Positions 17,637-40,973 of a DNA stretch of 40,973 nucleotides are shown in pieces (position 1 is the first letter of the stretch; each line of letters begins with the position of its first letter). Both the position numbers and the translations under genes were made by a program. The stretch comes from a virus. Below the pieces are notes generated by a model, which was not told the origin of the DNA, searched no databases, and saw only the letters and a program-made list of their open reading frames with translations. The DNA is taken from the UHGV virus genome UHGV-0256613; one strand, given 5' to 3'.

Positions 17637-17640
17637 AGTT

Positions 17641-19007: not shown

Positions 19008-19214
19008 ATGTGCATGGGTAGCTCACCATCAGTGCCTGCAACACCAGAAGTTCAGGCAGCACCACAGGAGCAGGATGCCGCCGTTGTTGATGCCCGCGAC
19101 GAAGAAACTCGTCGCCGTCGCGCTGCTGCTGGTCGTAGTTCTACGCTGCTTACCGGTTCTCAGGGCGACACATCAACCGCTAATACCAGCGGTAAAACGC
19201 TGCTTGGTCAGTAA
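19008..19214 (+). CDS. hypothetical small protein upstream of portal
   Basis: 68 aa with GGAG SD; the same SD context (ccggagtcattga) recurs before the portal gene. Confidence 0.5.
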   Translation: MCMGSSPSVPATPEVQAAPQEQDAAVVDARDEETRRRRAAAGRSSTLLTGSQGDTSTANTSGKTLLGQ

Positions 19215-19228
19215 CCGGAGTCATTGAA

Positions 19229-21899: not shown

Positions 21900-21913
21900 G
21901 AGAGGAGATAACA

Positions 21914-22900: not shown

Positions 22901-22951
22901 CGCCTGTTATTAACCTGTGGGCCGCAACAGGCCCACTAATGGAGAAAGAAG

Positions 22952-23389
22952 ATGATCACCGACAAACTGTTGATGTTCTCCGAAGCACAGGCGGTAACTG
23001 ATACCGCGGCTTCTACTGACGTAATCGATCTCGGTCCAATTGACGGAAACCGTCGCGATATCGGTGTGGGTTACCCGCTTGAGTTTTGGGTGCTGGTTAA
23101 CGAAGCCGCCACGGCAAGTGGTGAGGCAACTGTAAACATCCAGTTGCAGACGAGTGAGAATAACAGCTCATGGTCCACTATTTATGATAGTGGCGCACTG
23201 GCAAAGGCCACCCTGACAGCAGGTAAGCGAGTTGTTTCTGCAAAGGTGCCTGCCGGTGTTCAGCGATATCTGCGTGTTAACTACTCCGTCGCAACTGGCC
23301 CACTAACGGCTGGCAAATTCACTGCGGGTATCAATCTTGATGTTGATGCCAATACGCCGTATCCGATCCGCTCAAAAGTAACTGGTTAA
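22952..23389 (+). CDS. hypothetical virion protein
   Basis: 145 aa; strong SD; within structural operon. Confidence 0.6.
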   Translation: MITDKLLMFSEAQAVTDTAASTDVIDLGPIDGNRRDIGVGYPLEFWVLVNEAATASGEATVNIQLQTSENNSSWSTIYDSGALAKATLTAGKRVVSAKVPAGVQRYLRVNYSVATGPLTAGKFTAGINLDVDANTPYPIRSKVTG

Positions 23390-23390
23390 G

Positions 23391-23735
23391 GTGATATTGA
23401 TGTCAGGTGAGAAACCAAGATACCGCGTTCTGCGCCTCTCTCATATCCATAACACTCTGTGGCCGGAGGGGGCAGAAATCGAATACGAAGGTGAGCCTGG
23501 TAGCGCACTGGAACCTGTTAACGATGCAGCCAGACAGGCAAAAGCAAAAGTTGCAGGAAAGGTGTCAATGGCAGCAACCAGCACCAAAATCATCAACGAT
23601 GTGTCAGATGATGGTGAACTGGATAAGCTCCGTGAAGAGTACGAATTGCTCTTTAACGAGAAGCCACACCATAACGCCAAAGCCGAAACGCTCCGCGAGA
23701 AGATCGCAGATAAGCGTAAAGAACTGGGCGTGTAA
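23391..23735 (+). CDS. hypothetical virion protein
   Basis: 114 aa; tightly coupled to the preceding gene; followed by a terminator. Confidence 0.6.
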   Translation: MILMSGEKPRYRVLRLSHIHNTLWPEGAEIEYEGEPGSALEPVNDAARQAKAKVAGKVSMAATSTKIINDVSDDGELDKLREEYELLFNEKPHHNAKAETLREKIADKRKELGV

Positions 23736-23752
23736 GCCTCGCGAATCAGACA

Positions 23753-23773
23753 AGGGGCTTCGGCCCCTTTATT
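23753..23773 (+). terminator. rho-independent terminator after the capsid gene block
   Basis: AGGGGC-ttcg-GCCCCT followed by TTATT; position analogous to T7 T-phi. Confidence 0.65.
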
Positions 23774-23791
23774 GCAGGAGTATAGAAACTT

Positions 23792-24397
23792 ATGGCCTCT
23801 GTAGTAGAGATCTGCAATCGTGCGCTGTCCAATATTGGCAACAGCCGCAGTATTAACAGCCTGACGGAAGCCAGCAAGGAAGCGGGGGAATGTTCGCTGC
23901 ACTTTGAGGCCTGCCGTGATGCTGTGCTTTCTGATTTTGACTGGAACTTTGCTACCAAACGCGTGGCGCTTGCAGATACGAGCAATCCACCGCCTGACTG
24001 GGAATATGCGTACCAGTACCCGTCCGATTGTCTGCGCATTACTGAAATTATGCTTCCTGGTGTACGCAATCCAACAGCAGCAATGCGCGTTCAGTACGAA
24101 GTTGGTGCAGACACCAACGGAACAGGAAAGTTGATCTACACAGACCAGCCGCAGGCATGGCTCAAGTATGTATCTCGCGTTTCAGATGTGAACATGTTTG
24201 ATGCCATTTTTATGGAGGCGTTGGCCTGGCGTCTTGCGGCAGCCATTAACATGGCGCTGACTGGGAATGCAGACCTCGGTACGTTTGCCCTCAATATGTA
24301 CAATCGCGTGATTCTTAGTGCTGGCTCGCATAGCCAGAATGAATCACAGGAACCACAGCCACCGGTTGACGAGTTTACCATTGCGAGGTTGTCCTGA
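23792..24397 (+). CDS. tail tubular protein A (T7 gp11-like)
   Basis: 201 aa; size, position and N-terminal pattern (..NRALSNIG..SINSLTE..) resemble T7 gp11. Confidence 0.6.
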   Translation: MASVVEICNRALSNIGNSRSINSLTEASKEAGECSLHFEACRDAVLSDFDWNFATKRVALADTSNPPPDWEYAYQYPSDCLRITEIMLPGVRNPTAAMRVQYEVGADTNGTGKLIYTDQPQAWLKYVSRVSDVNMFDAIFMEALAWRLAAAINMALTGNADLGTFALNMYNRVILSAGSHSQNESQEPQPPVDEFTIARLS

Positions 24398-26868: not shown

Positions 26869-27332
26869 TGGTCGATGTTCAAATTATTCCCGCTACCGAA
26901 GAGCATCTTCAGATGATTTTGCCGGATGTTCGTCAGGCTGATATTGACGAACTGTATGCGGTATCGCTGATGACTACCGAAGATGCGCTGCGTGTTGGTC
27001 TGCGCACTGCGACTATGGCCTGGTCAGGATTTGCGAACGGAGAACTGGTAACCATGTTTGGCGTATCTCCGGCGTCAATGATCGGTGGCAATGGTACGCC
27101 CTGGCTGGTAGGAACCAGCCGTATTGAAAAATATCAGAAGACATTTCTGCGCCACTGCCGCCCTGTATTGCAGCAGATGCTGGCAGTTTATCCGCGCCTG
27201 GAAAACTACGTCGACGAGCGAAACCATGTTGCCAAAGCATGGCTGCACTGGCTTGGATTCAGGCTTGAAGAAGCCGCGCCTTATGGTGCTCTTGGTCTTA
27301 ATTTCCACAGATTTCACATGGAGAGAAAATAA
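26868..27332 (+). CDS. internal virion protein (gp13 position)
   Basis: 154 aa; ATGA-coupled. Confidence 0.55.
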   Translation: MVDVQIIPATEEHLQMILPDVRQADIDELYAVSLMTTEDALRVGLRTATMAWSGFANGELVTMFGVSPASMIGGNGTPWLVGTSRIEKYQKTFLRHCRPVLQQMLAVYPRLENYVDERNHVAKAWLHWLGFRLEEAAPYGALGLNFHRFHMERK

Positions 27333-27895
27333 TGTGCGATCCGGTTATTGCTGGTGGCGCAATGCTCGCCATGAGTGGCATTCAGGCATACACCCAGTAC
27401 CAACAGGGAAGGTATGCCTCGAAGGTTGCAGAAGCGAACGCAGATATAGCCACAGCTCAGGCAAATGATGCAATAAACAGGGGTAACGCTGAAGCTGAGC
27501 AACGGCGCAGAGAGACCCGACAGCGGCTTGGTACACAGGCGGCGACAATGGGGGCTACCGGTGCGGAATTAAGTAGCGGAACAGCTCTTGACGTTTTTGC
27601 GGATAATGCTCAGTTCGGCACTCTTGATGCGTTAACGACAGTGAATAATGCTCAGCGTGAGGCATATGGGTATCAGGTTCAGGGAATGAATGCTCAGGCA
27701 CAGGGGGCTGCTGCTCAGTCGGCTGCTAAATCATCGATGACCAGCACTTTGTTAACGGCACCACTAAAAGCATACGGTGCATATAAGTTGGGTAGCGGAA
27801 GTATCAATCCGATTAGTAAGCAAGGAAACACGCCAATGTTATCTAACTCAGGTTTTATGAATTCTGACTCCCGATTCAAAATAGGAGGTTACTGA
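27332..27895 (+). CDS. internal virion protein (gp14 position)
   Basis: 187 aa; hydrophobic N-terminus, Ala/Gln-rich. Confidence 0.55.
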   Translation: MCDPVIAGGAMLAMSGIQAYTQYQQGRYASKVAEANADIATAQANDAINRGNAEAEQRRRETRQRLGTQAATMGATGAELSSGTALDVFADNAQFGTLDALTTVNNAQREAYGYQVQGMNAQAQGAAAQSAAKSSMTSTLLTAPLKAYGAYKLGSGSINPISKQGNTPMLSNSGFMNSDSRFKIGGY

Positions 27896-30612
27896 TGCCT
27901 GTTGTTCCTACTACATCCGGACGTCAGGTTGAGAGTCGTGGTGTGCAAACCGGTGGTTTTCAGACCTTCGATGTTCCTCAAGCAGGTCAGGTGCTGGCGA
28001 ATGTCGCAGATCAGTATGCGGTGGCATATGGTGAAGCCAGGCAGAAAGCGAATGTTGCATTGTCTCAGGATGCCATCCTTCAGCTTAATCAGCGCAGCAA
28101 TGAACGTCTTTATAACCCTCAAACCGGTTTTTATGCACAACAAGGCAAAAATGCGATTGGTAAGGGGCAAGAGTACATATCTGGATTTGATCAGGATGTG
28201 GAAGAAATAGCTGCTTCATTGACTGATGAAGCAGCAAGAAATATGTTTTTGCAACAAGCCAGAACACAGAAAATTCAGTTCAGTACTGGAGTTCTCAGAC
28301 ATGAGATAGGGCAGACAAATGCCTATGAAGATGAGCAATATCAGGCAACGAGAAAATTATGGATACAAAATGAAGCGGATGCCTGGAATGACCCGCAAAC
28401 TGCCACTTTAGCCAGAAATTCCAGAATGGTAGCCATTGCCAGATATGGAGCAGCCAGGGGATGGTCACAAGAACGCATTCTGGAAGAAATAGAAAGTGAT
28501 GATCGCAGTGCCACAGAAATGCGGGCGAAGAATTATGCCGCTGCTAATCCGGAAGGATGGTTAAATGGTCAGTTTCAGAAAAATGATTCTGGAGGCATGG
28601 ACATGCGTGCCATACGCCTTGTTGAATCAGGTGATCGTCATTTTAATCCTGATGGTAGTATTCTTGAAGGACCGAAAACATCTTCTGGAGAGAGGGCCCA
28701 GGGGAAATACCAGTTAATGCCGGGCACAGGGAAAGAACTGGCGGCCAAACGTGGCGTTGAATACAACCCTACGGACGAACAACAGCATGAAATGCTTGCC
28801 AGTGACTATGTAAATCAACTGTATGGTAAGTACGGCTCCGAAATATTGGCCGGAGCAGCATATAACTGGGGGATGGGTAACGTGGATAAACTGATCGCCA
28901 AAGTCGGTGATCCACGTAAAGGTGAAATATCAGAAGAAGAATTTATCCGAAATCTTCCATCAGAAACACAAGGGTGGCTTTCCCGATATAGAAAAAATAA
29001 AACTGGAATGGATCCGCTGACTATTTATCAAATAGATAACCTTGCTAATAGTCAGATAGAAAAGCAAAGGAAGTTAATATTAGAACAGCTTGAGCCAGCT
29101 ATTAATAACACCATGGCCCAGCTATATAACGGTGAGGTTCCAGATTATATACCGGCTCAGGAGACCATCATCAGGGGGTATGGAAAAAACGCAGATAAAA
29201 TAATCAATCAACTGGATATAGCGATTGATAACGCGAGAATATTCCAGGCAATTCAGTATTTGCCTCCTTCTCAGCAGCAAGAAGAAATGCAGAAAGTGAA
29301 GCCTGAGGTTAACGATCCTCACTATGCGTTAAAACTCGATGCTTACGGAAAATTGTCTGCATTGCTTCAGAGATCAAATGAAGCAATTCAGGCGCAACGG
29401 GATTCACGCAGATTCAATGAGGCGCTGACAATAGGTGAAAAATTAGACCCAAGCAACAAGTCAATGCAGAAAGCTGCTGATTACACAGAAATGGCGCAGA
29501 ACTTTCGTATTAATGATGTCTCCACTCATGATGGGGTTGTTCGGCTTGTGGCTCAGACTGGCATAATGCCTTCGCAGGTCATCACGCAGCTTTCAGCAGT
29601 ATCCCGATCCAGCAATCAGGAAGTGGTTAAAAATGCGGCGGAACTGTTTAGTCGGTTATATGAAACAGACAATGCATCTATTGGAAATATGCCGAAGGAT
29701 ATGCAGGGTTTTTATCTGACTGTTAAGCAACTAACTGATTCTGGCATGTCTGCTGATGTGGCTATCGAGCAGGCGCAGAACCTTACGTACAACCAGACCG
29801 ATGCTCTTAAAGCTCAATTGGCATCAACGCAGAGTTCAAAAGAGTACAAAAATGATCGCAGCAAGGCGATGAATTCTGCTGTCAGCAATATGGCGCAGTG
29901 GTTCCGTTGGGATCCGTCTGCGGATGACCAGACGCCGGAAGCAGCTAGATTCCGTAATGACTATCAGACGATGTATGACATTAACTACCGCGTTGCTGGT
30001 GGTAACGCTGACGTAGCGAAGCAAATGACCAACCAGCAGATAGCCCGCACTTGGAGTATCAGCGAGGTTAACGGAGAAGCGCAGTTTATGAAATATGCAC
30101 CGGAGGCGCTTTATCAATATGGGCCGTCAGGCTGGCAGGCGGCGCAGTGGAAAGCTGAAAAAGAACGGCTGATGTACGGTGAGCGCAAAGAGATTATAAC
30201 AACCAGTCCGACGTTGCTTGGGATCACGTCAGGTAATGCTCCTGTAGTTGAGACAAAAACCCCTGAGAGTCGTATTAATGGAGAATTATTCATAACCCCT
30301 GACGTGTTAACACCCCGTAATGGTGATTACGCCATTATGGTAAGAACTAAGGATGAAAATGGCATCGATCGGGTCCAGCCGTTTTATAACAAACATGGGC
30401 GTCCTATGCGTTGGGAACCATCACTAGAAGATTGGGAACCTTATAAGAAAATGCAGCAGGAACGGGAGCAGTACGAGCAGGAAGAAATTATGCGTGGACA
30501 GGCTATACGAAACTTCAAAGACAAGCATCGCGCTCTGGATGAGCAGTATCAGCGCCTGCATAACGAACGTATGGACAAATTTAAAGATTACTTTTCGTGG
30601 GGATCTAAATAA
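27895..30612 (+). CDS. internal virion/ejection protein with lytic-transglycosylase-like motifs
   Basis: 905 aa; segment VESGDRHF...GKYQLMPGTGKEL...AAYNWGMGNV resembles SLT-domain motifs. Confidence 0.7.
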   Translation: MPVVPTTSGRQVESRGVQTGGFQTFDVPQAGQVLANVADQYAVAYGEARQKANVALSQDAILQLNQRSNERLYNPQTGFYAQQGKNAIGKGQEYISGFDQDVEEIAASLTDEAARNMFLQQARTQKIQFSTGVLRHEIGQTNAYEDEQYQATRKLWIQNEADAWNDPQTATLARNSRMVAIARYGAARGWSQERILEEIESDDRSATEMRAKNYAAANPEGWLNGQFQKNDSGGMDMRAIRLVESGDRHFNPDGSILEGPKTSSGERAQGKYQLMPGTGKELAAKRGVEYNPTDEQQHEMLASDYVNQLYGKYGSEILAGAAYNWGMGNVDKLIAKVGDPRKGEISEEEFIRNLPSETQGWLSRYRKNKTGMDPLTIYQIDNLANSQIEKQRKLILEQLEPAINNTMAQLYNGEVPDYIPAQETIIRGYGKNADKIINQLDIAIDNARIFQAIQYLPPSQQQEEMQKVKPEVNDPHYALKLDAYGKLSALLQRSNEAIQAQRDSRRFNEALTIGEKLDPSNKSMQKAADYTEMAQNFRINDVSTHDGVVRLVAQTGIMPSQVITQLSAVSRSSNQEVVKNAAELFSRLYETDNASIGNMPKDMQGFYLTVKQLTDSGMSADVAIEQAQNLTYNQTDALKAQLASTQSSKEYKNDRSKAMNSAVSNMAQWFRWDPSADDQTPEAARFRNDYQTMYDINYRVAGGNADVAKQMTNQQIARTWSISEVNGEAQFMKYAPEALYQYGPSGWQAAQWKAEKERLMYGERKEIITTSPTLLGITSGNAPVVETKTPESRINGELFITPDVLTPRNGDYAIMVRTKDENGIDRVQPFYNKHGRPMRWEPSLEDWEPYKKMQQEREQYEQEEIMRGQAIRNFKDKHRALDEQYQRLHNERMDKFKDYFSWGSK

Positions 30613-33600
30613 TGCCAGTTTATGCACAAGCTGAAGATCTTAATAACGGACTGATCCCGTCAGGTAATGTTTTGCCGGAACAAACTGGGTTTGATGTTGC
30701 CCTTCCGGAAGGGGCTAATCCTGAGCCATTGCCACCTGAGCCTTCCGTATGGGGGGCTGCAATGCGACAGAACAATATTCTGTCTGGTTTTTTCCGCCCA
30801 GCCAGACAGTTTGAACCGGTCGAGGGTTATAACCCATATGCTGATAAAAATGAGTTGCACGGTTATGAATACTGGGGGGCGAAATTTGCAGATTCCCGAT
30901 CGCCAGAGGAAACGGCGTGGATTAAGCAGCAGATAGATGATGAAAATGAAGACAGACGTTTATTGTCTGATGCTGGCGTAGTTGGAACCCTTGCCAGTAT
31001 TGCTGCGGGAATGGATCCGGTTACTGTTGCGTCAATGTTTATTCCCGGTGCTCAAGGAGGGGCACTGGCGCGTATTGGCTCACAGATTGCGATTGGTGCT
31101 GCCGGTACAGCATTAAGCGAGGTTGTACTGAATAATCAGCAAATAACACGCTCATGGGGTGAAAGTGCCGCTCACGTTGCAGCGGGTGCGATGATGAGCG
31201 GCGTGTTTGCCAGTGCTGGTGTTGCGCTTTCGCCATCCGTCCGGGCTGCAGCCACACGTGAGGTTGCTGATGCTCTTGATAATATGAGCATTACATCAGT
31301 GACTGACAGGGCTGCCGCTTCGCTTTCCGATGGTGGTAGTGTTGGTGCTATGAAAATTGATACAGCGACTCTGGATGATTTAACCCCTGTTTCCGGTGGG
31401 TGGGTTGGAAAGGCTGCATGGAAAGCAGGGAGCTATCTTACTCCTTTGACAAGGTTAATGGAGTCTCCGTCCAAGACGGTGCGAAAAACAACGCTGGAGT
31501 TAGCCGAAAATAATTTCACCCTTAAAGGAAATGAAAGGGGGATTGAAACACCGGTAGCTGTAGAAACCCGTACACGTGGATGGCAGCGTGAAGAAGCTGC
31601 TGTTGTTGTCGGAAATAAACAGGCATACGCAAAGTATAAAGCTGATGGTGGTGACATGAGTTTTGATTCATTTCGTCAGCAGGTTGGGAATGCTATGCGA
31701 AGCGGTGATGTGCATGCTAATCCTGTTGTTCAGGAAACGGCGCAGGCGATGCGAACTGTATTAAATCGGGTGAAAGTTGAAATGCAAAAGCTTGGTTTAT
31801 TGCCGCCAGATGAAGAACTGAAAGCATTAGGCCAGGCAAGCTATTTCCCACGCATATATAAAGTTGGAAAAATAATCAGTGAACGCGATAAATTTCGACG
31901 TATTTTGGTTGACTGGTGGTCGAGAGGAAATAAAACACTGGATCCTGAGGATGCTGAAATTGCAGCGGATATCGTAATTAATAAAATTACTGGTGCTAAG
32001 GTTCCACAGGATTTTGTCAGCGTATTTTCTGTAAAAGCCGCAGGTAGTACGAAAGAAAGAACATTAAATGTTCCTGATAGTCTTATCAGGGATTATCTTG
32101 AAAGTGATGTGAATTACGTGCTGCAACGTCATATCCGTGAAGCGGCAGCAGAAATTGAGTTGACGAGAACATTTGGCAAACGAACTATGACTGAGCGTCT
32201 GCAATTAATTGAGGACGAATATGACAGTCTGTTACGGGAAGTGCCTGAAAAAATAAAGGCGAAATATGACGAAAGTGTGGCAAATCTGAAAGCACGTTAT
32301 GAGAGCAATGGTGAAGTTGTTCCTCAGGGTAAACTCGATTCATTAATGCGAAAGTACGAAAAGGAATTACGGAAAGAACAGTCCAGACTTTCAAAATCAA
32401 GAGCAAATGATCTCAGAGACATAACAGCATTACGCGATCGTCTTGTTGGTACATATGGGATGCCTGATGATCCGTCTTCGTTTTTTGTTCGTGCTGGCGC
32501 TTTTCTGCGGGATGTGAACTTCACGACCAAACTCGGTGGAATGACAGTATCAGCTATTCCAGATCTGGCCAGAGGGGTTATGGTTAATGGTTTCCGTAAC
32601 ACCATGAAAGGCTATGCTTCTCAGATATCCCAATCACCGGCATTTAAGGCCAGCAAAGAAGATATGTTGAAGATGGGGATTGGATTGGAAGCTGTACTAC
32701 ATTCACGTTCTCGTGCAATTGGTGATCTTGTTGACAGTTCTTCCAGGACAACAGCAGTCGAAGCAGGAATGGAGCGAATTACTGATGCCTTCGGCAAGCT
32801 GACACTCATGGATCGATTTAATGACATAAACAAATCCATGAACGGAATGCTCACGTCAGACGGTATTTTGTCCGGTGCGTTTTCTGCACGTCGCATGGCA
32901 AAACTCGGTATCAACGACAATATGGCTGCGCGTATTCGCAGTGAGTTCGAGAAACATGGTGAGGTAATTGATGGATGGCACATTGGTAACTTTGATAAAT
33001 GGGACGATCAGTACGTTGCCGGAGTATTCCAGTCAGCGGTTCTGAAAGACGTTAATAACACTATCATCACCCCCGGTATTGGTGACACACCTTTATGGGC
33101 GAGTACTCCAATGGGGCGAACGATATTTCAGTTTAAATCATTCACAACGGCTTCATACAACCGTGCGCTACTTGGTGGGTTACAGGAAGGAACTGCGCAA
33201 TTTTATTATGGCACTGCATTTCAGATTGCTCTTGGCTCACTGGTCTATGCGCTAAAAGAAGCATCGAAAGGGAAAAATGTTGACTGGTCACCAGAGAAGC
33301 TGGTGCTTGAGGGTATAGATAGATCCGGTATTCTTGGGCCATTGATGGAATATAACAACATGGCTGAAAAGGCTACTGGTGGTGCTGTTGGGCTGGGGGC
33401 TTTATTTGGCACTGGCACACAGTCTAGGTATGCCAGTCGTGGATTCGTAGGATCTCTATTCGGACCGTCATTTGGTCTTGCGGATAGCATCATTGATGTG
33501 ACCGCAGGAGTGTTGAATGGTGATGCCGGTGATCGTATTGCGCATAATGTCCGAACCCTGATACCAGGCAATAACCTGTTCTGGATTGCGCCACTAATAA

Positions 33601-34291: not shown

Positions 34292-34723
34292 CTATTCAGG
34301 TATTTCAATTCCAAAACCATCTGCATCCCATGAGTTTTCACAGATGATGTAACCTAGTTCATTGAGCTTATTAAATGTTTTTTCAAAGATGATCTGGTAA
34401 TCATTATCTGCAAGTGATTCCAGTTCAAGGTCATTAAGGTTTATATAAAAACTTGTATGTCCAAGTGTTATTTTCTTATTAATTTCATTAAAGGTTCTTT
34501 TGAAAATAATATTTGATATTTCATGCCGTGCATTGTTTGCAATAATTTTTGCTTCATAAGCAGAAATTACGTCATCTTCATGAATATCTTTCAGAAAGCT
34601 GGTGTCAAGACGTTGTACTATTTCAGCGTTCATTGATCGCTTATTGGCTTTTGCAGAAATTTCTATTTTTTCTTTTACTTCAACGGGAAGTCTGATCCTT
34701 AGTTGTGGATCTTCTCTGCTCAT
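34292..34723 (-). CDS. Mnt-like ribbon-helix-helix repressor with C-terminal extension
   Basis: N-terminus DPQLRIRLPVEVKEKIEISAKANKRSMNAEIVQRLDTSF matches the Arc/Mnt RHH pattern; divergent from the arc-ant operon as in P22 immI. ORF track extends to 34753 (TTG). Confidence 0.65.
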   Translation of the reverse strand: MSREDPQLRIRLPVEVKEKIEISAKANKRSMNAEIVQRLDTSFLKDIHEDDVISAYEAKIIANNARHEISNIIFKRTFNEINKKITLGHTSFYINLNDLELESLADNDYQIIFEKTFNKLNELGYIICENSWDADGFGIEIPE

Positions 34724-34814
34724 GTTCTTCACCAAATATTGAGTTACTTGCAATGATTGAAGTATGCCTCACCGTGTGCTTGACATCAATGACGCACGGT
34801 GTGACAATTGTTTT

Positions 34815-35011: not shown

Positions 35012-35083
35012 AACAGCGAAGCCCAACGGTGGCCAGACCGTCAGGGCTTCAGTATCGTAAAACTACGTATAGGAATTAACGAC

Positions 35084-36022
35084 ATGACGAGTATAGCAAC
35101 AGCGGTATCTACTATCAACGTGCCATTCCACGGCGCAGAGCTTTATGTTGTCAATCACAACGGTGAACCGTATACCCCAATGAAACCTATCGTTGAGGGA
35201 ATGGGGCTAGACTGGAAATCTCAACATAAGAAGATTTCTCAACGCTTCTCGAAGGGTATGGTGGAAATCACCATACCTTCTGCCGGTGGGGTGCAAGCCA
35301 TGATTTGTATGGCTTTACGAAAATTGGCAGCTTGGTTGAACAGCATCAGTCCAAACAAAGTACGCCCTGAAATCCGCGACAAGGTAATCCAGTATCAGGA
35401 AGAGTGTGACGATGTGCTCTACGATTACTGGACTAAAGGCCATGTAGTTAACCCACGCAAAGCTAAAAAGGCGTTGCCGGGTAAAATCACCACTGAACAG
35501 CAGGAAGCCATTAAACAACTCGTCATGAGTCGCGGTCAGTCTCTGCCAAAAGAAAAACAGGCTAAGGCGATGATCACCATGTGGTCGTCACTGAAATCTC
35601 ATTTTGGCTGTTCGTACAAAGAAATTGATGAAGATCAATTCGCCGAAGCGTTGTCTCTTGTTGCTCGGGTTCCGCTTGAAGGGGAGTATCTCCCTGCTGG
35701 ATCTGCATCAGAGAATGATGAAGTGGCAGTCAAGATGTTAGATGCGCTTCGTGAGGCAATTAAAACACAGACAAAATGTTATGGTTATCCGCTGAAGCCC
35801 GGCTACCGCAGTTTGATTCACTCGCCGTCTGGTGTTCTCGGCCTGACGGAGAACTCACTGCTGATGAATCTGCTGAACCAGTTACAGGAAGACGGGCACG
35901 ACGTATCGGGTGCGGCGGCGGAACTGACCACCATGTTCTGCTACATCGTCGGTGTGAGTAAATGCCTGCGTGATATCCAGACCCACGCGGAGTACATCAA
36001 CGACAAGGCAGGGTTCTTCTGA
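35084..36022 (+). CDS. ant: antirepressor Ant (AntA-type N-terminal domain, shared C-terminal domain)
   Basis: 312 aa; N-terminus ...MKPIVEGMGLDWKSQHKKIS...; C-terminal ~85 aa nearly identical to the C-terminus of the 37274-37966 protein. Confidence 0.8.
   Translation: MTSIATAVSTINVPFHGAELYVVNHNGEPYTPMKPIVEGMGLDWKSQHKKISQRFSKGMVEITIPSAGGVQAMICMALRKLAAWLNSISPNKVRPEIRDKVIQYQEECDDVLYDYWTKGHVVNPRKAKKALPGKITTEQQEAIKQLVMSRGQSLPKEKQAKAMITMWSSLKSHFGCSYKEIDEDQFAEALSLVARVPLEGEYLPAGSASENDEVAVKMLDALREAIKTQTKCYGYPLKPGYRSLIHSPSGVLGLTENSLLMNLLNQLQEDGHDVSGAAAELTTMFCYIVGVSKCLRDIQTHAEYINDKAGFF
35780..36022. repeat. left arm of ~245-bp inverted repeat (antirepressor C-terminal coding region)
   Basis: Reverse complement is near-identical by eye to 37274-37520 (a handful of mismatches). 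Confidence 0.8.
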
Positions 36023-36073
36023 CAGAACGGCGGCACAGGGATGTGCAAAACGGAACTATCGTGACATGTCACA

Positions 36074-36097
36074 GGCCGCTTTCGCGGCCTTGTTTTT
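36074..36097 (+). terminator. rho-independent terminator after ant (preceded by GTGACATGTCAC palindrome at 36061-36072)
   Basis: GGCCGC-tttc-GCGGCC followed by TTGTTTTT; identical hairpin recurs at 39327-39350. Confidence 0.6.
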
Positions 36098-36257
36098 AAC
36101 GAATGCCACCGCCACCCGGGCGGGAATCCGCAGAACGCCCACCGCAGCGGGAGCCGTCAGCAGCAGTGTCGCTGTCGTGCTGACAACGACCGGCAAAGGC
36201 CTGAGTTGAAGCTACCAGAGACAACAAAACGAACAGTGCAGCAAATGCTTTTTTCAT
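36096..36257 (-). CDS. possible small secreted peptide
   Basis: MKKAFAALFVLLSLVASTQAFAGRCQHDSDTAADGSRC...; clear signal-peptide-like N-terminus but weak SD and GC-rich; uncertain. Confidence 0.3.
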   Translation of the reverse strand: MKKAFAALFVLLSLVASTQAFAGRCQHDSDTAADGSRCGGRSADSRPGGGGIR

Positions 36258-36328
36258 TGTGAAATTTCCATCTATAAGCCACCTCAATGTGGCGTCAATG
36301 AGTGTAGCACTGACTTTTGTTTCGTCCA

Positions 36329-36350
36329 CAAAAAAGCCCGCAGCGCGGGC
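36329..36350 (-). terminator. rho-independent terminator (minus strand)
   Basis: On minus strand GCCCGC-gcu-GCGGGC followed by TTTTTT, directly after the stop of the 36351-36899 gene. Confidence 0.55.
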
Positions 36351-36899
36351 TTACTTTTCTTCAGGTTTGTTGTCTTCAGATTTCTTCTTGATGCTTGGTT
36401 TTTGTCTAAGAACGAAAATACCAGCCACTGCAACAACTGTACCGATCACTGTGCCAGCTAGAACTTCATGACCTGTTAAACCTAATAATGTTGCACAAGC
36501 TACTGTAAAAATAGTTGCACTCAGGCCAAACCACTGCCCACGTTTATCTCTATTAATAGCCCCGTCAAGTGCCTTTTCCTCCATTTTCTGGCGGTGAGCA
36601 AACTCCTTCTCCGTCAGCTGGAAGATGCGTTCGGGGGCATCAGGTAAAATATCCTGATACCCGCGAAGCAGATAGGGGGGAGGAAGCGGACCCTGAAACG
36701 CATGGTGAGCGACAACTATCTCCTGAATTTCAGGGCGATCAAGAACTCTTGTGAAGGCATCTGGGTGTTGAATGATCTCGTTACTTAGCCCTTCCTCAAC
36801 TTCCTCGAACTCAGTTTCTTCGTTATCACTTGGTTGCCCAATAGATTTTTGCATATTTGTCGAAGGACATTCCTTTAGCTTCTGGTTTTCCTCTTGCAT
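36351..36899 (-). CDS. membrane protein (acidic N-terminus, two C-terminal TM helices)
   Basis: 182 aa; C-terminal WFGLSATIFTVACATLLGLTGHEVLAGTVIGTVVAVAGIFVL; start uncertain (internal Met at residue 16). Confidence 0.6.
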   Translation of the reverse strand: MQEENQKLKECPSTNMQKSIGQPSDNEETEFEEVEEGLSNEIIQHPDAFTRVLDRPEIQEIVVAHHAFQGPLPPPYLLRGYQDILPDAPERIFQLTEKEFAHRQKMEEKALDGAINRDKRGQWFGLSATIFTVACATLLGLTGHEVLAGTVIGTVVAVAGIFVLRQKPSIKKKSEDNKPEEK

Positions 36900-37152
36900 T
36901 TGAGTTTTTCCCTGTCACTATTGCCCATTTTCCGCCAGCAGGCGCTGCAATTTTTTTTCCGTTCTTTACTATATATTCAGCATAAACACGATTTTCTGAC
37001 CGTCTGAGATCGTCTCCGACCATATTCATGTCTCTTGATATAACTTTGACGACAGAGTCTCGGTTTAAAGCCTTGGCATAGTTGGAGCCAGGAACGATAC
37101 CCAAAGGGGTGCCAGACTCTATAGCCAGCTCCTTGACATATCTTCTGCTCAT
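36826..37152 (-). CDS. hypothetical protein
   Basis: 108 aa from ATG at 37152 with GAGGT SD; overlaps the next gene's 5' end. ORF track extends to 37167. Confidence 0.45.
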   Translation of the reverse strand: MSRRYVKELAIESGTPLGIVPGSNYAKALNRDSVVKVISRDMNMVGDDLRRSENRVYAEYIVKNGKKIAAPAGGKWAIVTGKNSNARGKPEAKGMSFDKYAKIYWATK

Positions 37153-37273
37153 ATGAACCTCAACCAATCGACTTTACCAATCGGGTAATTTTAAACATGA
37201 GTATAATGCTTTTAACTGCAACGAGTGTAAACAATTATTGATAATTGTAGGCACATCCCTGTGCCGCCGCCCG

Positions 37274-37520
37274 TCAGAAGAACCCTGCTTTGTCGTTGAT
37301 GTACTCCGCGTGCGTCTGGATATCACGCAGGCATTTGCTCACACCGACGATGTAGCAGAACATGGTGGTCAACTCCGCCGCCGCGCCCGATACGTCGTGC
37401 CCGTCTTCCTGTAACTGGTTTAGCAGATTCATCAGCAGTGAGTTCTCCGTCAGGCCGAGAACACCAGACGGCGAATGAATCAGGCTGCGGTAGCCGGGCT
37501 TCAGTGGGGCGCTGTAGGTT
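37274..37520. repeat. right arm of ~245-bp inverted repeat (antirepressor C-terminal coding region)
   Basis: Near-identical to reverse complement of 35780-36022. Confidence 0.8.
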
Positions 37521-37966
37521 TTGTTCTCTACCTTCATTGCCTGCATCACTGCTGATGCTGTGGCGTTGGCTACCTGGTCGGCAACCATCTTTATGCGTTC
37601 TTCCTGCGGGAGCGAGTTTTTAATGTAACTTCCGGTGCGGCGGATCTGAGGAAGAACCTCACCTGTAACCCATTCAAGAAATCTGAATGCTCTCGTTCCC
37701 TCAGTCATTGCCTCTTTGCAACGCAGAATAAGGATGTAGAGACCTGATTCTGAAACGATGGATAGTTCTTGTATTCCACCAGGGGTCTGTATTGAATACA
37801 GCCCCTTTTTGTTCCAGCCTTTTTTATCAAGTTTTCTCGCTTGTGTAACATCAATATTCAAAGCATTGCACACATCTTTGGTGACAAACCAAGGTTCTCC
37901 GTCAATCATGAACATACGGATCTGGCAGGATGACTCAAAGGAAAAGATGGAAGGTTTGGTATTCAT
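37274..37966 (-). CDS. antirepressor paralog (Bro-N-type N-terminal domain, shared Ant C-terminal domain)
   Basis: N-terminus MNTKPSIFSFESSCQIRMFMIDGEPWFVTKDVCNALNI... (Bro-N-like); C-terminal ~85 aa shared with Ant at 35084-36022. ORF track extends to 38011. Confidence 0.75.
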   Translation of the reverse strand: MNTKPSIFSFESSCQIRMFMIDGEPWFVTKDVCNALNIDVTQARKLDKKGWNKKGLYSIQTPGGIQELSIVSESGLYILILRCKEAMTEGTRAFRFLEWVTGEVLPQIRRTGSYIKNSLPQEERIKMVADQVANATASAVMQAMKVENKTYSAPLKPGYRSLIHSPSGVLGLTENSLLMNLLNQLQEDGHDVSGAAAELTTMFCYIVGVSKCLRDIQTHAEYINDKAGFF

Positions 37967-38015
37967 AGCGATCACCTTTGTAGTTAGGTTAATCACCACC
38001 GCTGAGACCAATCAG

Positions 38016-38098
38016 ATGGTGGTGAACTGTGCAGAGTTGGTCTTACCGGCTACAAAGGAACCCGGCGCACCTTTCGGTGCCCCCACACAGCCCACCAT
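38016..38098. repeat. diverged duplicate of 9184-9266 (leader/N-terminal module with GNRA hairpin)
   Basis: ggtggtgaactg..cccggcgcacctttcggtgcccccac..cagcccaccata shared by both loci; here encodes only a 28-codon relic (MVGCVGAPKGAPGSFVAGKTNSAQFTTI*) upstream of the Bro-N antirepressor. Confidence 0.7.
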
Positions 38099-38233
38099 AG
38101 AATAGGTGCGCTTTACACATAAAAAAACCGCTTATGCGGCATATGTGCCTCTGTAGTAATCCGGGAGACCAATCCCGGCACTGGATTTTGCCAGTGCCCG
38201 ATTACTATGGCACAAGAGGAGTGCAATGTAAAT

Positions 38234-38248
38234 TTACCGAAAAGGTAA
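38234..38248. promoter_or_regulatory. TTACC-N5-GGTAA palindrome (copy 3 of 4)
   Basis: TTACCgaaaaGGTAA in the divergent region between the Bro-N antirepressor and the two-gene module. Confidence 0.4.
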
Positions 38249-38326
38249 TAATAAATGCATAACTCACGTTATTTCAACCCTATATGGTTTGATTTATCCC
38301 ATTTCAGAAAATACCTGCCTATTTTT

Positions 38327-38356
38327 TTGCCAGTATGCGTATACTTTCGATAGAAT
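38327..38356 (+). promoter_or_regulatory. candidate sigma70 promoter for the two-gene module
   Basis: TTGCCA (38327-38332), 18-nt spacer, TAGAAT (38351-38356); AT-rich upstream region. Confidence 0.35.
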
Positions 38357-38373
38357 GTTTACCCTAGAGGTAG

Positions 38374-38829
38374 TTGGGGGTGCCCGTGAACACGAAGAGA
38401 GCTACAGTAATGCAGCATTTGAGGAAATCAGAAAAAAATAAAGACCATGAAATATTGAGTAAGGCCATTGTTCGGGCTTCCAATAATACTGTTATACCTC
38501 ATGCTGAAGAGTCTGGACAGAAATTTCTTATTCGGTATTTCACTGAAAATAGTGCAGTTGAGGAGATTTTAAAACATCAGGGAGGGGAATTTAAATGTGG
38601 AAAACTGGCAGATTATGTTCGTCGTGAAACGTCTGAACAAGAAGTATATTATGCTGATATTAATCATAAGTCAGGTGTGAAAATTGTAATAGGCTATTAC
38701 ACAACTCCCAAAAATGTTATGCATGAGGTCCCAAAGATGTCCGTCGAGAAATCTCATGCAATCTCGCGCAGGATGTTTGCACGCACTGCCGAAGATATGG
38801 CTCAGGAGCTCTACGACGATGCTGAATAA
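38374..38829 (+). CDS. hypothetical protein, upstream partner of the YafO-like gene (start uncertain: TTG 38374 or ATG 38410)
   Basis: 139-151 aa; AT-rich; stop overlaps the downstream start by 11 nt (ATGCTGAATAA). Confidence 0.6.
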   Translation: MGVPVNTKRATVMQHLRKSEKNKDHEILSKAIVRASNNTVIPHAEESGQKFLIRYFTENSAVEEILKHQGGEFKCGKLADYVRRETSEQEVYYADINHKSGVKIVIGYYTTPKNVMHEVPKMSVEKSHAISRRMFARTAEDMAQELYDDAE

Positions 38830-39325
38830 ATTCCAGGGGTTGGTTCACCCTGGAATTTTTGGGAAGGACCCTGAGCTAATACCTATCAAAAACGCGTTCA
38901 TAGATCACTGGCGCTACGGTCATCATAAGGATTTCGGAAAGGACACTCTGTTTCGGGATCCACCGAAAGAAATGCTGGAATATCACATACGCCACGTTCA
39001 CGTAAACATCGGAAACTATACTGACAAGTTTGGTGAGAGCGGTACGGAACAATGCTGGAAAAACTGGGCGTCTGGGAAGAAAGACAAGACCACTAACAAG
39101 CATAAAAAGATCCCAACCAGTGACGTGTATGTGATTTATCTGGTCACATCTGAACGCCATGCCTTCCTTCTGGATTATTGGGATGAACCAGCACATAAGA
39201 CAGTAGAAATTGACGAGCAGAAGCAAAAATTAGTTGTCGAGTGTGACAGAATTTTGCGGCTGAAAAAGTTAGAATCCATGCCGCGCGATGCTAGTTTGTG
39301 GGACCCAGAATTTTACGACTGTTAA
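38819..39325 (+). CDS. YafO-family-like toxin-domain protein (putative)
   Basis: 168 aa; motifs GIFGKDPEL / DFGKDTLF, HIRHVHVNIGN and DVYVIYLVTSERHAFLLDYWDEPAHK parallel recalled YafO motifs (IFGRDALYDD, HIHLAN, HLVYCQGAFDEQAWLLIAILKPEPHK); AGGAG SD. Confidence 0.55.
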   Translation: MLNKFQGLVHPGIFGKDPELIPIKNAFIDHWRYGHHKDFGKDTLFRDPPKEMLEYHIRHVHVNIGNYTDKFGESGTEQCWKNWASGKKDKTTNKHKKIPTSDVYVIYLVTSERHAFLLDYWDEPAHKTVEIDEQKQKLVVECDRILRLKKLESMPRDASLWDPEFYDC

Positions 39326-39326
39326 T

Positions 39327-39350
39327 GGCCGCTTTCGCGGCCTTTTCTTT
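39327..39350 (+). terminator. rho-independent terminator after the two-gene module
   Basis: GGCCGC-tttc-GCGGCC followed by TTTTCTTT; same hairpin as 36074-36097. Confidence 0.6.
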
Positions 39351-39606
39351 ATGTGGTTTGTTTTCGTAATTGTTCGGCACAATAGTCGAGATGTGTTTGC
39401 AGATCCTGCATAGACATCTGTGAGCTGGTGACGTAGTTAATCAGTGCAGTCAGTTCGGCAAGTGGGCCATCGACATTAAATCCATCCTTATCGAGATCCC
39501 GGAGTAATTTCATCAAGTGCGATCCCTCCACCAGTGACCTGACGCCTCCCGGCGTGTGAATCCTTTCGGTAAATCCGTCTTCCAGTGGATAGTGATACTG
39601 CTGCAT
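39349..39606 (-). CDS. small protein homologous to the antirepressor C-terminal domain only
   Basis: 85 aa from ATG with GGAGAAG SD; PGGVRSLVEGSHLMKLLRDLDKDGFNVDGPLAELTALINYVTSSQMSMQDLQTHLDYCAEQL parallels the Ant C-terminus. ORF track extends to 39729. Confidence 0.5.
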   Translation of the reverse strand: MQQYHYPLEDGFTERIHTPGGVRSLVEGSHLMKLLRDLDKDGFNVDGPLAELTALINYVTSSQMSMQDLQTHLDYCAEQLRKQTT

Positions 39607-39682
39607 CTTATCTTCTCCATGCAATAACTGTATGTTTATACAGTAACAAATAATTTGTTTGCTATCCAGCACGTTTTGCAAA

Positions 39683-39697
39683 TTACCCGAAAGGTAA
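39683..39697. promoter_or_regulatory. TTACC-N5-GGTAA palindrome (copy 4 of 4; 7-bp arms ATTACC..GGTAAT)
   Basis: aATTACCcgaaaGGTAATa between the divergent small Ant-C gene and the tailspike gene. Confidence 0.4.
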
Positions 39698-39801
39698 TAT
39701 CTATTGGTATTTATAGTCTTTTTATCCATATATGGTTTTTCAGGTAATAGAATAACCAGATATGCGGCGCAACGGGTGCTGCGACTATCTGGAGATTTAA
39801 C

Positions 39802-40973
39802 ATGACGGTCTCAACCGAAGTTGACCACAACGAATACACCGGTAACGGCGTTACGACATCGTTTCCGTATACTTTTCGAATTTTCAGAAAATCAGACCTG
39901 GTTGTTCAGGTGTCTGATCTGAACGGAAACGTAACAGAATTGGTCCTGGATACCGGTTATACGGTAACTGGGGCGGGCACTTATAGTGGCGGTTCTGTGG
40001 TTCTTCCGTCTCCGCTTGCTACTGGATGGCGAATTACGATAGATCGTGTGCTTGATGTAGTGCAGGAGACAGACCTTCGCAATCAGGGAAAATTTTTCCC
40101 CGAAGTGCATGAAGATGCCTTTGACTACCTGACGATGCTGATCCAGCAATGTTTTGGGTGGTTCAGACGTGCATTGATGAAGCCCTCTCTGCTTGCAAAA
40201 TATTACGATGCAAAGCAAAACAGAATTTCTAACCTTGCAGATCCATCACTTGAGCAGGATGCTGTAAATAATCGCTCAATGCGTAATTATGTCGATGCTG
40301 CAATCGCCGGGGTTGTTGGTGGTTTTGGTTGGTTTATTCAGTATGGTTCTGGGGCTGTGTACCGAACGTTCCAGGATAAGATGAGAGACACCATTAGTGT
40401 TCGTGATTTTGGTGCAAAAGGAGACGGCATAACAGATGATACTGTAGCAATTCAAAATGCTATTAATGCAGTACCAGAAGGGGCTATACTTGGATTTTAT
40501 GGTGGTGAATTTGTTTTTGATAAGGTTGAATTGTTTAAGCCAATAACATTAGTTGGTGATGCAACGTTAATTCACAACGGATTTAGAATAAAATCTAGCA
40601 GAATCCGATCACTTTTATCTGGCGTTCAGAAATGCAAGGATTACTCCGAGTCTTCAAGAGCATTTTATTGCTATGCAAATGAAGACCAAAGAGATTATGA
40701 CGATATTCAGATTTTATTTAATAGATTTGAAGGTTTCTTTTACTCTACGGCATTTGTTGCAAAAAACTATTATTTGGAGAATGACCCTAATTCAAGAATT
40801 GTCAAAAACACAAAAGTAATAGGGTGTACATCAGTTGCTCCTGATTCTGTAAATGCCGGTCATTTTCAACATATAGGCGTTACAAATGCTGAAACATCAC
40901 ATAACTCAACTTATGGCGGACAAAATGCAACATCATACAACTTCATTAACCAGAATGGATTTGTAAGGATTAT
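39802..40973 (+). CDS. tailspike/tail fibre (T7-type N-terminal adaptor; pectate-lyase-like start of receptor-binding domain), 3'-truncated at window end
   Basis: Open frame from ATG 39802 (GGAGAT SD) to the window end: MTVSTEVDHNEYTGNGVTTSFPYTFRIF... then ...ISVRDFGAKGDGITDDTVAIQNAINAVPEG; not in ORF track because no stop is reached. Confidence 0.8.
   Translation, partial: MTVSTEVDHNEYTGNGVTTSFPYTFRIFRKSDLVVQVSDLNGNVTELVLDTGYTVTGAGTYSGGSVVLPSPLATGWRITIDRVLDVVQETDLRNQGKFFPEVHEDAFDYLTMLIQQCFGWFRRALMKPSLLAKYYDAKQNRISNLADPSLEQDAVNNRSMRNYVDAAIAGVVGGFGWFIQYGSGAVYRTFQDKMRDTISVRDFGAKGDGITDDTVAIQNAINAVPEGAILGFYGGEFVFDKVELFKPITLVGDATLIHNGFRIKSSRIRSLLSGVQKCKDYSESSRAFYCYANEDQRDYDDIQILFNRFEGFFYSTAFVAKNYYLENDPNSRIVKNTKVIGCTSVAPDSVNAGHFQHIGVTNAETSHNSTYGGQNATSYNFINQNGFVRI

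Follow-up and report, generated by a model that had tools for sequence, protein, structure and literature searches.

The TTACC-N5-GGTAA Repeat of a 40,973-Nucleotide Virus Genome Is a Shared Operator of a Known Kind and Very Probably a Site for the Rep Repressor of Epsilon15-Type Prophages

Introduction

The window analysed here, i.e. the whole stretch of 40,973 nucleotides of UHGV virus genome UHGV-0256613, carries the palindrome TTACC-N5-GGTAA in front of several genes, which raises the question of whether these dyads are one shared operator and, if so, which regulator reads it. A first-pass annotation had listed four copies with an A-rich spacer upstream of accessory genes, and had viewed them either as low-affinity sites of the window's own CI/Cro proteins or as sites for another phage regulator. 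Here we report that the repeat is a genuine shared operator of an already known kind, and we infer with high confidence that the dyads are bound by Rep, the prophage repressor of podophages of the epsilon15/phiV10/SPC32H type (Uetakevirus).

Results

Number and Sequence of the Dyads

The four copies first listed (18279-18293, 18903-18917, 38234-38248, and 39683-39697) are exactly placed, and so is the site TTGTACC-N5-GGTACAA at 10578-10596 with which they had been compared, but the recurrence goes further than that count, since the perfect copies at 15542-15556 and 37174-37188 had been overlooked. The window thus contains six perfect dyads (at 15542, 18279, 18903, 37174, 38234, and 39683), together with two that have one mismatch (15560-15574 and 38359-38373). 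The chance expectation of exact copies, calculated from 100 dinucleotide-preserving shuffles, was 0.01, and none of the 100 shuffles reached six. Every dyad of the window, perfect or with one mismatch, is intergenic. In phage EC.W1-9, which is 99% identical and whose 11 exact dyads include the six of the window, all 11 fall outside annotated coding sequences, i.e. in 8.3% of the genome (P ~1e-12). In contrast, the A-rich spacer did not hold, because there are 50 distinct spacers among nine genomes (eight Uetakeviruses and the window) and the bias is restricted to the central position, which is A or T in 46 of the 50.

Conservation in Uetakevirus

The dyad is unchanged across the genus, in phages of E. 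coli, Enterobacter, Salmonella, and Klebsiella. Each of phiV10, EC.W1-9, TL-2011b, Tyrion, VB_ST_E15, PAS61, SPC32H, and Klebsiella phage BUCT711 contains 8-11 exact copies, and alignments of the regions upstream of the terminase, portal, Bro-N, and tailspike genes place the dyads at orthologous intergenic positions although the flanking DNA has diverged. In these relatives, three dyads lie between the repressor and cro-like genes, pairs spaced by 62-63 bp lie on either side of two promoters, the early-left one and the one that follows the replication genes, and single dyads precede the terminase, portal, antirepressor, tailspike, and lysis units; SPC32H has dyads around rep as well as in the region separating ant from the tailspike gene.

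The dyad is already annotated as a repressor-binding site in the GenBank record of epsilon15 (AY150271.2), where ATTACC-N5-GGTAAT is given as protein_bind "repressor / lysogeny" at eight places, which are possibly predictions only. The core of this form, TTACC-N5-GGTAA, is the one matched exactly six times in the window, and the annotated sites include the orthologues of those at 15542, 18903, and 39683. In epsilon15, dyads also mark the early-left promoter and the stretch that follows the replication genes. A literature search for TTACC/GGTAA operators returned nothing relevant, and operators are left undefined in the ZX5 paper.

Location of the Dyads Relative to Predicted Promoters

The dyads of the window are the following.

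15542-15556, unstranded: dyad of the putative Rep operator type, TTACCACAACGGTAA; the orthologous epsilon15 site (12-27) is annotated protein_bind "repressor"
15560-15574, unstranded: one-mismatch dyad TTACCATGGTGGTTA, overlapping the terminase ribosome-binding site
18279-18293, unstranded: dyad TTACCTTCAAGGTAA, before the leftward gene 17641-18246
18903-18917, unstranded: dyad TTACCTTAAAGGTAA; the orthologous epsilon15 site (2931-2947) is annotated "repressor"
37174-37188, unstranded: dyad TTACCAATCGGGTAA, covering the predicted start point of a leftward promoter
38234-38248, unstranded: dyad TTACCGAAAAGGTAA, conserved in phiV10, TL-2011b, and Tyrion
38359-38373, unstranded: one-mismatch dyad TTACCCTAGAGGTAG, at the predicted start point of a rightward promoter
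39683-39697, unstranded: dyad TTACCCGAAAGGTAA; the orthologous epsilon15 site (19895-19911) is annotated "repressor"

Promoters were called as matches to the consensus. At 37174, 38234, and 18903, the first T of the dyad is also part of a predicted -10 box, and the predicted +1 is covered at 38359. Thus, the leftward promoter TTAAAA-16-TAAAAT (37215-37188, predicted) reads into genes 36826-37152 and 36351-36854, and the dyad at 38234 abuts the -10 box of the predicted leftward promoter TTGAAA-18-TATTAT (38277-38248) and is centred at -44 of the predicted isrK promoter TTTACA-17-CATAGT (38232-38204, start 38197). At a distance of 125 bp from the latter dyad, the 38359 site accompanies the predicted rightward promoter TTGCCA-18-TAGAAT (38327-38356) of the two-gene module 38410-39325. 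The final base of the 18903 dyad is part of the -10 box of a predicted leftward promoter (18946-18917) directed toward tRNA-Arg, and the rightward portal-operon promoter has its predicted start about 79 bp downstream of the centre of this dyad. The 18279 dyad, shared by the window and EC.W1-9 alone, overlaps a weak leftward promoter, GTGACT-17-TAAGAT (8/12; a call made by eye, below the scan threshold), and that at 39683 is midway between divergent promoters and upstream of both, at about 65 bp from that of the LexA-controlled Ant gene and about 67 bp from that of the tailspike gene. Finally, the 15542 dyad is located 19 nt past the terminator 15505-15522 and upstream of the ATG of the small terminase gene (15577), with the centre of the 15560 dyad at 18 bp from its own; this doublet and its GGTTA variant are kept in phiV10, TL-2011b, Tyrion, and PAS61, and the promoter scan at 15542 gave no convincing promoter.

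These data support one shared protein-binding operator at the predicted promoters of several transcription units. The description "upstream of accessory genes" was too narrow, since the dyad also precedes the terminase, portal, and tailspike units. For the genes adjoining the dyads, searches with Pfam, NCBIfam, and PADLOC returned no functional assignment beyond a DUF2335 domain in 36351-36899 and a Bro-N domain in 37274-38011.

The elements that accompany the dyads are as follows.

18956-18982, + strand: M2 AATCATATGTGGTT (18956-18969), 7 nt, and -10 box TAATAA (18977-18982) of the predicted late promoter of the portal operon
38015-38197, - strand: isrK sRNA (38121-38197) and C4 antisense RNA (38015-38102), with Rfam scores of 74.7 and 78.6 bits, respectively, both above the gathering score
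39349-39606, - strand: small antirepressor Ant (85 aa), matching PDB 5D50 chain E "Anti-repressor protein" (E = 1.3e-47)
39626-39645, unstranded: LexA box AACTGTATGTTTATACAGTA before the Ant gene, with one mismatch to the 20-bp consensus pattern
39724-39750, + strand: M2 ATCCATATATGGTT (39724-39737), 7 nt, and -10 box TAATAG (39745-39750) of the predicted tailspike promoter

The leader of the Bro-N antirepressor gene (37274-38011) consists of the isrK and C4 RNAs and follows the 38234 operator. The LexA box of Ant is conserved throughout the genus, and the block CATATGTGGTTAAATTGGTAATAATTTAA of the portal promoter is invariant in seven genomes from four host genera. The tailspike gene starts with an ATG at 39802.

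Rep as the Regulator That Probably Reads the Dyads

The repressor of phiV10 matches SPC32H Rep, a tetramer of solved structure (PDB 5D50 and 5D4Z), with E = 4e-42. As far as sequence comparison can tell, the specificity for the operator tracks the recognition helix, which is ANLVNRW in Rep, ANYISRC in the cI of Pseudomonas phage PseuP_224, and PTQTSRF in the CI of the window. Rep proteins with only 42-45% overall identity keep both the ANLVNRW helix and the dyad unchanged, and PseuP_224 has TTACC-N4-GGTAA three times beside its cI gene. Covariation of operator and repressor within the genus was unusable, the specificity being invariant even at 42% Rep identity. Of the two options offered by the first-pass annotation, "another phage regulator" is very probably the correct one, with Rep of the epsilon15/SPC32H type in that role, and the proposed tie between these genes and the lysogenic state is most likely. 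The cro-like protein probably shares the dyads, and other conserved regulators, such as the p55-like protein (15118-15420), may be additional binders.

Rep acts as a tetramer on palindromic sites and is taken off them by Ant (PMC9638917). At the dyad, pairs of Rep N-terminal helix-turn-helix domains would read both TTACC half-sites and leave the central 5 bp unread, except for the A/T preference at the centre. A tetramer could hold two dyads, and such bridging would account for dyads being set at constant distances of 17-18 bp and 62 bp, or 125 bp in the window. As we infer it for each promoter, Rep bound to a dyad that abuts the -10 box or covers the start point would block RNA polymerase, and this would be the case at 37174, 38234, 38359, and the leftward promoter at 18903, and probably also at 18279 and the terminase doublet. 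In a lysogen, Rep would silence the isrK-C4-Bro-N leader, the accessory modules, and the packaging genes, and DNA damage would lead, through LexA cleavage, to the production of Ant (39349-39606) and the release of Rep from the DNA.

Simple occlusion does not explain the dyads at -65 to -79 (18903 rightward and 39683), because they lie off the core promoter; at the portal and tailspike promoters, the dyad 67-79 bp upstream is probably an auxiliary site. A rather doubtful extension of the Rep model is that one tetramer anchored at the upstream dyad reaches M2 (aACC-ATATAT-GGTT), so that in-phase loops shut the late promoters. M2 lies within the core promoter, its end 7 nt short of the -10 box, and the centre distances from dyad (M1) to M2 (19.5, 40.5-43.5, and 52.5 bp) and from M1 to M1 (62 and 125 bp) are all near whole helical turns. 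The presence of the M2 palindrome at real promoters is what is left of an activator interpretation that was abandoned. A late-gene activator site had been read from the recurring downstream TATNTGGTTT, but the signal is partly a coincidence, because the match in phiV10 and Tyrion falls in the region of the ant stop codon.

The Resident CI/Cro Proteins and Other Candidate Binders

The window has its own CI (10613-11287, with a Peptidase_S24 domain) and Cro (10322-10522), whose operators are outside the dyad family.

10530, 10563, and 10580 (10530-10594), and 11334, unstranded: SfV/e14-type CI/Cro operators, GTACC-N5-GGTAC-like, of different specificity

It is highly improbable that the dyads are low-affinity sites of these proteins and that a lambdoid repressor controls the Uetakevirus-derived genes. 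Both operator types do share the core TACC-N5-GGTA, and the N-terminal domain of CI is distantly homologous to that of Rep (33% identity over 68 aa, E = 7e-8). However, at the position of the T in the dyad, every half-site of the four resident operators (TGTACC-N5-GGTACA) carries G (8 of 8), and 7 of the 8 have T at the flanking position, for which the dyad shows no preference; this difference at two positions that rarely or never vary leaves the low-affinity proposal unsupported. The dyads lack the half-site TGTACC and are found 4-29 kb away from the resident operators, in DNA of other origin. In addition, the recognition helix of this CI, which belongs to an unrelated SfV/e14-type module, is unlike that of the cognate repressors (PTQTSRF versus ANLVNRW). 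Identical dyads are present in phages that lack such a CI and were inherited en bloc with 99% identical DNA, whereas the nearest lambdoid prophage segment retrieved (29 kb, E. coli GN4554) has none.

We also give little credence to the dyads being activator sites at late and accessory promoters for another regulator of the Uetakevirus part, e.g. the p55-like protein, or for a host factor. Two dyads, at -67 and -79, are indeed at positions typical of upstream activators and in helical phase with M2, and a p55 homologue is kept throughout the genus, immediately before the late genes. Nevertheless, the cluster of three sites that separates rep from cro and the dyads over start points suit a repressor rather than an activator, the p55 gene carries a frameshift both in the window and in EC.W1-9, which is a viable phage, and the p55 product has no recognisable DNA-binding family. 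Moreover, unrelated phages with distant homologues of the Rep DNA-binding domain have TTACC-type dyads beside their own genes. A host transcription factor was discarded because the motif accompanies such domains in unrelated phages; to our knowledge, no E. coli transcription-factor site matches the dyad.

That the palindrome works as RNA (a boxB/nut-like element, a processing site, or a terminator element) has next to no chance of being right: a 5-bp stem with a 5-nt loop (GAAAA at 38234) has the size of lambda boxB, but the stem is invariant and the lack of covariation rejects it (76 exact sites, 41 one-sided variants, and 6 compensated ones, which fall inside genes by their coordinates, at least four being one spot in the large terminase gene), the loops are unconstrained (50 variants), the dyads occur in either orientation to genes and often upstream of predicted start points, and no Rfam family matches them.

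Absence of the rep Gene from the Window

The window is, as judged from its matches, a chimera of an SfV/e14-like lambdoid early region (1-14774), with its own CI/Cro, and a mostly Uetakevirus remainder, most of which matches the genomes of phiV10, EC.W1-9, and TL-2011b. No dyad is found in positions 1-14773, and the window dyads would have come along with the late and accessory DNA. When the Rep and cro-like proteins of phiV10 were compared with the window by tblastn, only the N-terminal similarity to the lambdoid CI was detected and no rep gene; the dyad cluster between rep and cro, which together with the repressor gene is present in all eight full relatives, is also missing. The protein at the junction has no match on record, the junction-spanning pattern was not found in GTDB representative genomes or IMG/VR, and none of the complete E. 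coli genomes covers the junction. Replacement of the rep-cro module by an SfV/e14-type immunity region makes the dyads of the window orphan sites, unless another source in the cell provides Rep. The only unusual point of the window is that it has Rep-type sites without the gene of that repressor.

Discussion

The closest parallels are within the genus. The dyad sequence of the window is that annotated in epsilon15 as ATTACC-N5-GGTAAT, and the positions at the small terminase gene, the portal operon, and gp19 (Ant)/tailspike are also the same (AY150271.2; Kropinski et al. 2007). The window differs from epsilon15 in its extra dyads at mosaic accessory genes (18279, 37174, 38234, and 38359) and in lacking both the repressor gene of epsilon15 and its entire immunity region. 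For SPC32H, a Rep-Ant-LexA switch between lysis and lysogeny has reportedly been described by Kim and Ryu in 2013 and by Kim et al. in 2016. The window resembles it in having the same dyads, an Ant close to the SPC32H protein (E = 1.3e-47), and a LexA box before it, and a tetrameric Rep suits paired operators; the window, in contrast, has no rep gene.

As with the CI-Cro operators of lambda and P22 (OL and OR), the dyads are symmetric sites for helix-turn-helix dimers, and in the Uetakevirus relatives three of them lie between divergent repressor and cro genes and overlap promoters. Unlike those operators, however, the dyads extend beyond the immunity region as single copies at late and accessory promoters, and Rep, which lacks a domain cleavable through RecA, is switched off by an antirepressor instead. 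The C1 repressor of phage P1, which is unrelated to Rep, acts at numerous operators dispersed along the genome. One of these, Op51 of the c4-icd-ant operon, controls an antirepressor operon that has a C4 antisense RNA as its leader, an arrangement resembling that at 38234; the P1 operators are asymmetric 17-mers, whereas the dyad is palindromic. The stoperators of mycobacteriophages L5 and Bxb1 are numerous, located in short intergenic gaps throughout the genome, and asymmetric, being oriented with transcription. The likeness is limited to the dispersed intergenic distribution, although the terminase doublet, just past a terminator, could act as a roadblock; the dyad is a perfect palindrome without that asymmetry and lies mostly on predicted promoters.

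The dyads do not reveal a new kind of regulatory element, and their main use is in annotation, since one rule marks nearly every transcription unit of prophages of the epsilon15/phiV10 type, which are common in E. coli and Salmonella, including accessory and antirepressor operons. If the looping at late promoters were true, a single repressor would silence the whole genome in Uetakeviruses without a Q-type late regulator, and a rep-less hybrid such as the window would be deregulated or dependent on Rep in trans. The window shows operators parted from their repressor gene and, if this hybrid is real, its Uetakevirus genes would either escape repression or be under the control of a second prophage acting in trans, which would be a case of prophage cross-talk.

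Distribution of the TTACC-N5-GGTAA dyad

The window holds six exact copies of the palindrome TTACC-N5-GGTAA (15542, 18279, 18903, 37174, 38234 and 39683), and two further sites, at 15560 and 38359, appear when one mismatch is permitted. Dinucleotide-preserving shuffles of the window gave a mean of 0.01 dyads and never attained six. The first-pass annotation had placed four copies, all at exact coordinates, but it overlooked those at 15542 and 37174. All six are included among the 11 exact dyads of Escherichia phage EC.W1-9 (99% identical), every one of which lies outside annotated genes, i.e. within 8.3% of that genome (P ~ 1e-12). No dyad was found in 1-14773 of the window.

Between 8 and 11 exact dyads per genome were found in phiV10, EC.W1-9, TL-2011b, Tyrion (from Enterobacter), VB_ST_E15 and SPC32H (Salmonella), and PAS61 and BUCT711 (Klebsiella), the last with a portal only 59% identical to that of the window. 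Their layout is constant. Three dyads occupy the gap separating the repressor gene from its divergent cro-like neighbour and overlap a rightward promoter with the pattern TTGATT-N17-GAATAT; the early-left promoter has a dyad on each side, at a spacing of exactly 62-63 bp, with a third in the Salmonella phages; two more, 62 bp apart, follow the replication genes; and a single dyad or an 18-bp doublet precedes the terminase, portal, Bro-N antirepressor, tailspike and lysis units. All genomes examined showed a pair spacing of exactly 62 bp, or 63 bp in a single Klebsiella case, as at 31953/32015 and 35070/35132 of the compared phage genome L002, with the same pairs in L001, L003, L004, L005, L007, L008 and L009. 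All that the window retains is one pair at 125 bp (38234/38359) and one doublet at 18 bp (15542/15560). In orthologous intergenic alignments the half-sites are invariant, the flanks have diverged and the spacers are free.

In the epsilon15 GenBank record AY150271.2, the protein_bind features that bear the label 'repressor / lysogeny' all have the sequence ATTACC-N5-GGTAAT.

Annotated 'repressor / lysogeny' features of epsilon15
12-27, orthologue of window 15542
2931-2947, orthologue of window 18903
19895-19911, orthologue of window 39683
32479-32494
32554-32570
32616-32632
35906-35922

The earlier proposal of a shared operator was right.

Origin of the window

The window is a chimera of two phage lineages. 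Segments 14774-28091 and 36071-40973 are 99-99.9% identical to EC.W1-9, and phiV10 matches much of the late region at 96-98% identity; both phages are epsilon15-like podophages, phiV10 being classified in the genus Uetakevirus. Segment 1-14774 has no DNA similarity to either phage except two short patches (74-82%), and it matches SfV, cdtI, 2H10 and e14-type lambdoid prophages at 97-99.7%.

Features of the lambdoid part and the junction
10322-10522, cro-like gene
10613-11287, CI, Peptidase_S24 domain
14774-15011, lineage junction inside a DUF551 gene common to both phage types; left, lambdoid early region of the SfV/e14 kind with 99.7% identity to a prophage of E. coli GN4554; right, EC.W1-9/phiV10-like

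The lambdoid part also contains a CII-like gene and, further left, a Q antiterminator, a methyltransferase and lysis genes, assigned by gene size and order against the GN4554 prophage. The junction was absent from 5,426 complete E. coli genomes, GTDB representative genomes and IMG/VR, and no database record was found for the junction protein; it may be a rare recombinant of two prophages or an assembly chimera.

Several other elements were observed. Two pairs of isrK and C4 antisense RNAs, at 38015-38197 (-) and 9182-9370 (-), gave four of four matches above the Rfam gathering score; the first pair belongs to the leader of the Bro-N antirepressor gene, and the long ORF 8894-9730 of the lambdoid part is probably over-called because the second pair lies inside it. 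A P22 immI-like unit within a segment common to TL-2011b comprises a sar antisense RNA match (35015-35082 (-), 45.2 bits), an Arc-like-domain protein (34292-34753 (-)) and a P22-type Ant (35084-36022 (+)), and it holds no TTACC dyads. A tRNA-Arg (anticodon TCT) at 18497-18573 (-) is antisense to ORF 18265-18567, annotated as hypothetical protein p04 in phiV10 and EC.W1-9; this ORF is probably spurious. At 15118-15452 lies a frameshifted homologue of a conserved 112-aa 'transcriptional regulator' (phiV10 p55, epsilon15 gp49), whose gene precedes the terminase genes; its Cys-rich C terminus (CGKCG...CPC...C) is out of frame, a change that the viable phage EC.W1-9 shares.

The predicted binding protein

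The phiV10 repressor p40 matches SPC32H Rep (PDB 5D50 and 5D4Z; E = 4e-42). As summarised from Kim et al. 2016 in PMC9638917, Rep is a tetramer on palindromic sites, with DNA-binding pairs drawn from different dimers, and tetrameric Ant takes it off DNA.

Antirepressor features of the window
39349-39606 (-), Ant, 85 aa, match to SPC32H antirepressor (PDB 5D50 chain E, E = 1.3e-47)
39626-39645, LexA box in front of the Ant gene, one mismatch to consensus

We infer from sequence that Rep binds the dyad. The helix ANLVNRW and the dyad both persist even where overall identity among Rep proteins is only 42-45%. The cI of Pseudomonas phage PseuP_224, with an N-terminal domain 39% identical and the helix ANYISRC, adjoins three sites of the form TTACC-N4-GGTAA, two exact and one degenerate (L010 1418-1475), and the Moraxella phage Mcat9 homologue is accompanied by TTACY-N5-RGTAA-like dyads (L011 1350-1500). 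The window CI, with a domain 33% identical and the helix PTQTSRF, has operators TGTACC-N5-GGTACA at 10530, 10563, 10580 and 11334. Specificity follows the recognition helix, and this co-variation across unrelated phages links the dyad with a DNA-binding domain of the Rep type and not with any late-region component.

It had also been suggested that the dyads are low-affinity sites of the cI at 10.5 kb. This reading is not supported because that CI belongs to another phage lineage, and because its operators, at the positions where the dyad differs, have a G without exception and almost always a flanking T. In addition, no CI-type operator with at most one mismatch was found in the Uetakevirus part of the window, and no dyad in 1-14773 or in a 29-kb segment of the closest lambdoid prophage. 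An RNA element was rejected since sequence is conserved and pairing is not, the eight Uetakevirus genomes having 76 exact dyads, 41 one-sided variants and only 6 'compensated' ones (inside genes by coordinates, at least four of the six at the same spot in the large terminase gene), with 50 distinct spacers among these genomes and the window copies and no Rfam match at dyad sites.

Returning to Rep, no Uetakevirus-type rep or cro-like homologue was found in the window, which holds the SOS-inducible half of the Rep-Ant switch without Rep. Its dyads are orphans as long as no other source in the same cell supplies Rep; recombination of two resident prophages at the common DUF551 gene could have led to either outcome.

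Position of the dyads relative to promoters

Dyads of the window and neighbouring promoters
15542 and 15560, terminator on one side and terminase start codon on the other; no convincing promoter found there
18279, overlaps a weak leftward promoter recognised by eye only
18903, shares one base with the -10 of a predicted leftward promoter towards tRNA-Arg; rightward portal promoter ~79 bp downstream
37174, first base shared with the -10 of predicted leftward promoter TTAAAA-16-TAAAAT; start point covered
38234, abuts the -10 of predicted leftward promoter TTGAAA-18-TATTAT; also centred at -44 of TTTACA-17-CATAGT (predicted start 38197)
38359 (one mismatch), over the start point of rightward promoter TTGCCA-18-TAGAAT, serving a two-gene module
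39683, midway between the Ant and tailspike promoters, which diverge; start points ~65 bp (Ant) and ~67 bp (tailspike) away

The predicted start at 38197 is the 5' end of the isrK match, followed by the C4 antisense RNA and the Bro-N antirepressor gene, an arrangement that resembles an antirepressor operon held off by a prophage repressor. Pfam, NCBIfam and PADLOC assigned no function to the dyad-adjacent accessory genes at 38410-39325, 17641-18246 (-) and 36351-37152 (-); their only matches were DUF2335 in 36351-36899 and a very weak CARF_HEPN hit in 17641-18246 (E = 0.0014).

Repression by occlusion is the best-supported mechanism where the dyad sits on the -10 or the start point. Cooperative or bridging binding of a tetramer would account for the fixed spacings of 17-18, 62 and 125 bp, and LexA-controlled Ant would relieve repression. 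Occlusion gives no explanation for the upstream dyads at late promoters. A second conserved palindrome, M2 (aACC-ATATAT-GGTT), occurs in the window at three places.

M2 copies
18956-18969
38276-38289
39724-39737

At the portal and tailspike promoters, and at the lysis promoters of relatives, exactly 7 nt separate the end of M2 from the following -10. The block CATATGTGGTTAAATTGGTAATAATTTAA shows no variation among 7 genomes, whose hosts belong to four genera. Measured centre to centre, M2 is 19.5, 40.5-43.5 or 52.5 bp away from the nearest dyad, and the late-promoter dyads are in helical phase with it. Early promoters also have M2, located between the two dyads of a 62-bp pair; it is clear in Tyrion and more degenerate in other relatives. 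DNA looping from dyad to M2 is hypothetical.

Public annotation already contains the motif and attributes it to the repressor, and structures have been described for the repressor family. The present analysis adds the site list of the hybrid, the extra dyads at mosaic accessory genes, the fixed spacings, the M2 element and, from distant homologues, the connection with the recognition helix; the TTACC half-site appears to be an ancient trait of the helix-turn-helix family concerned.
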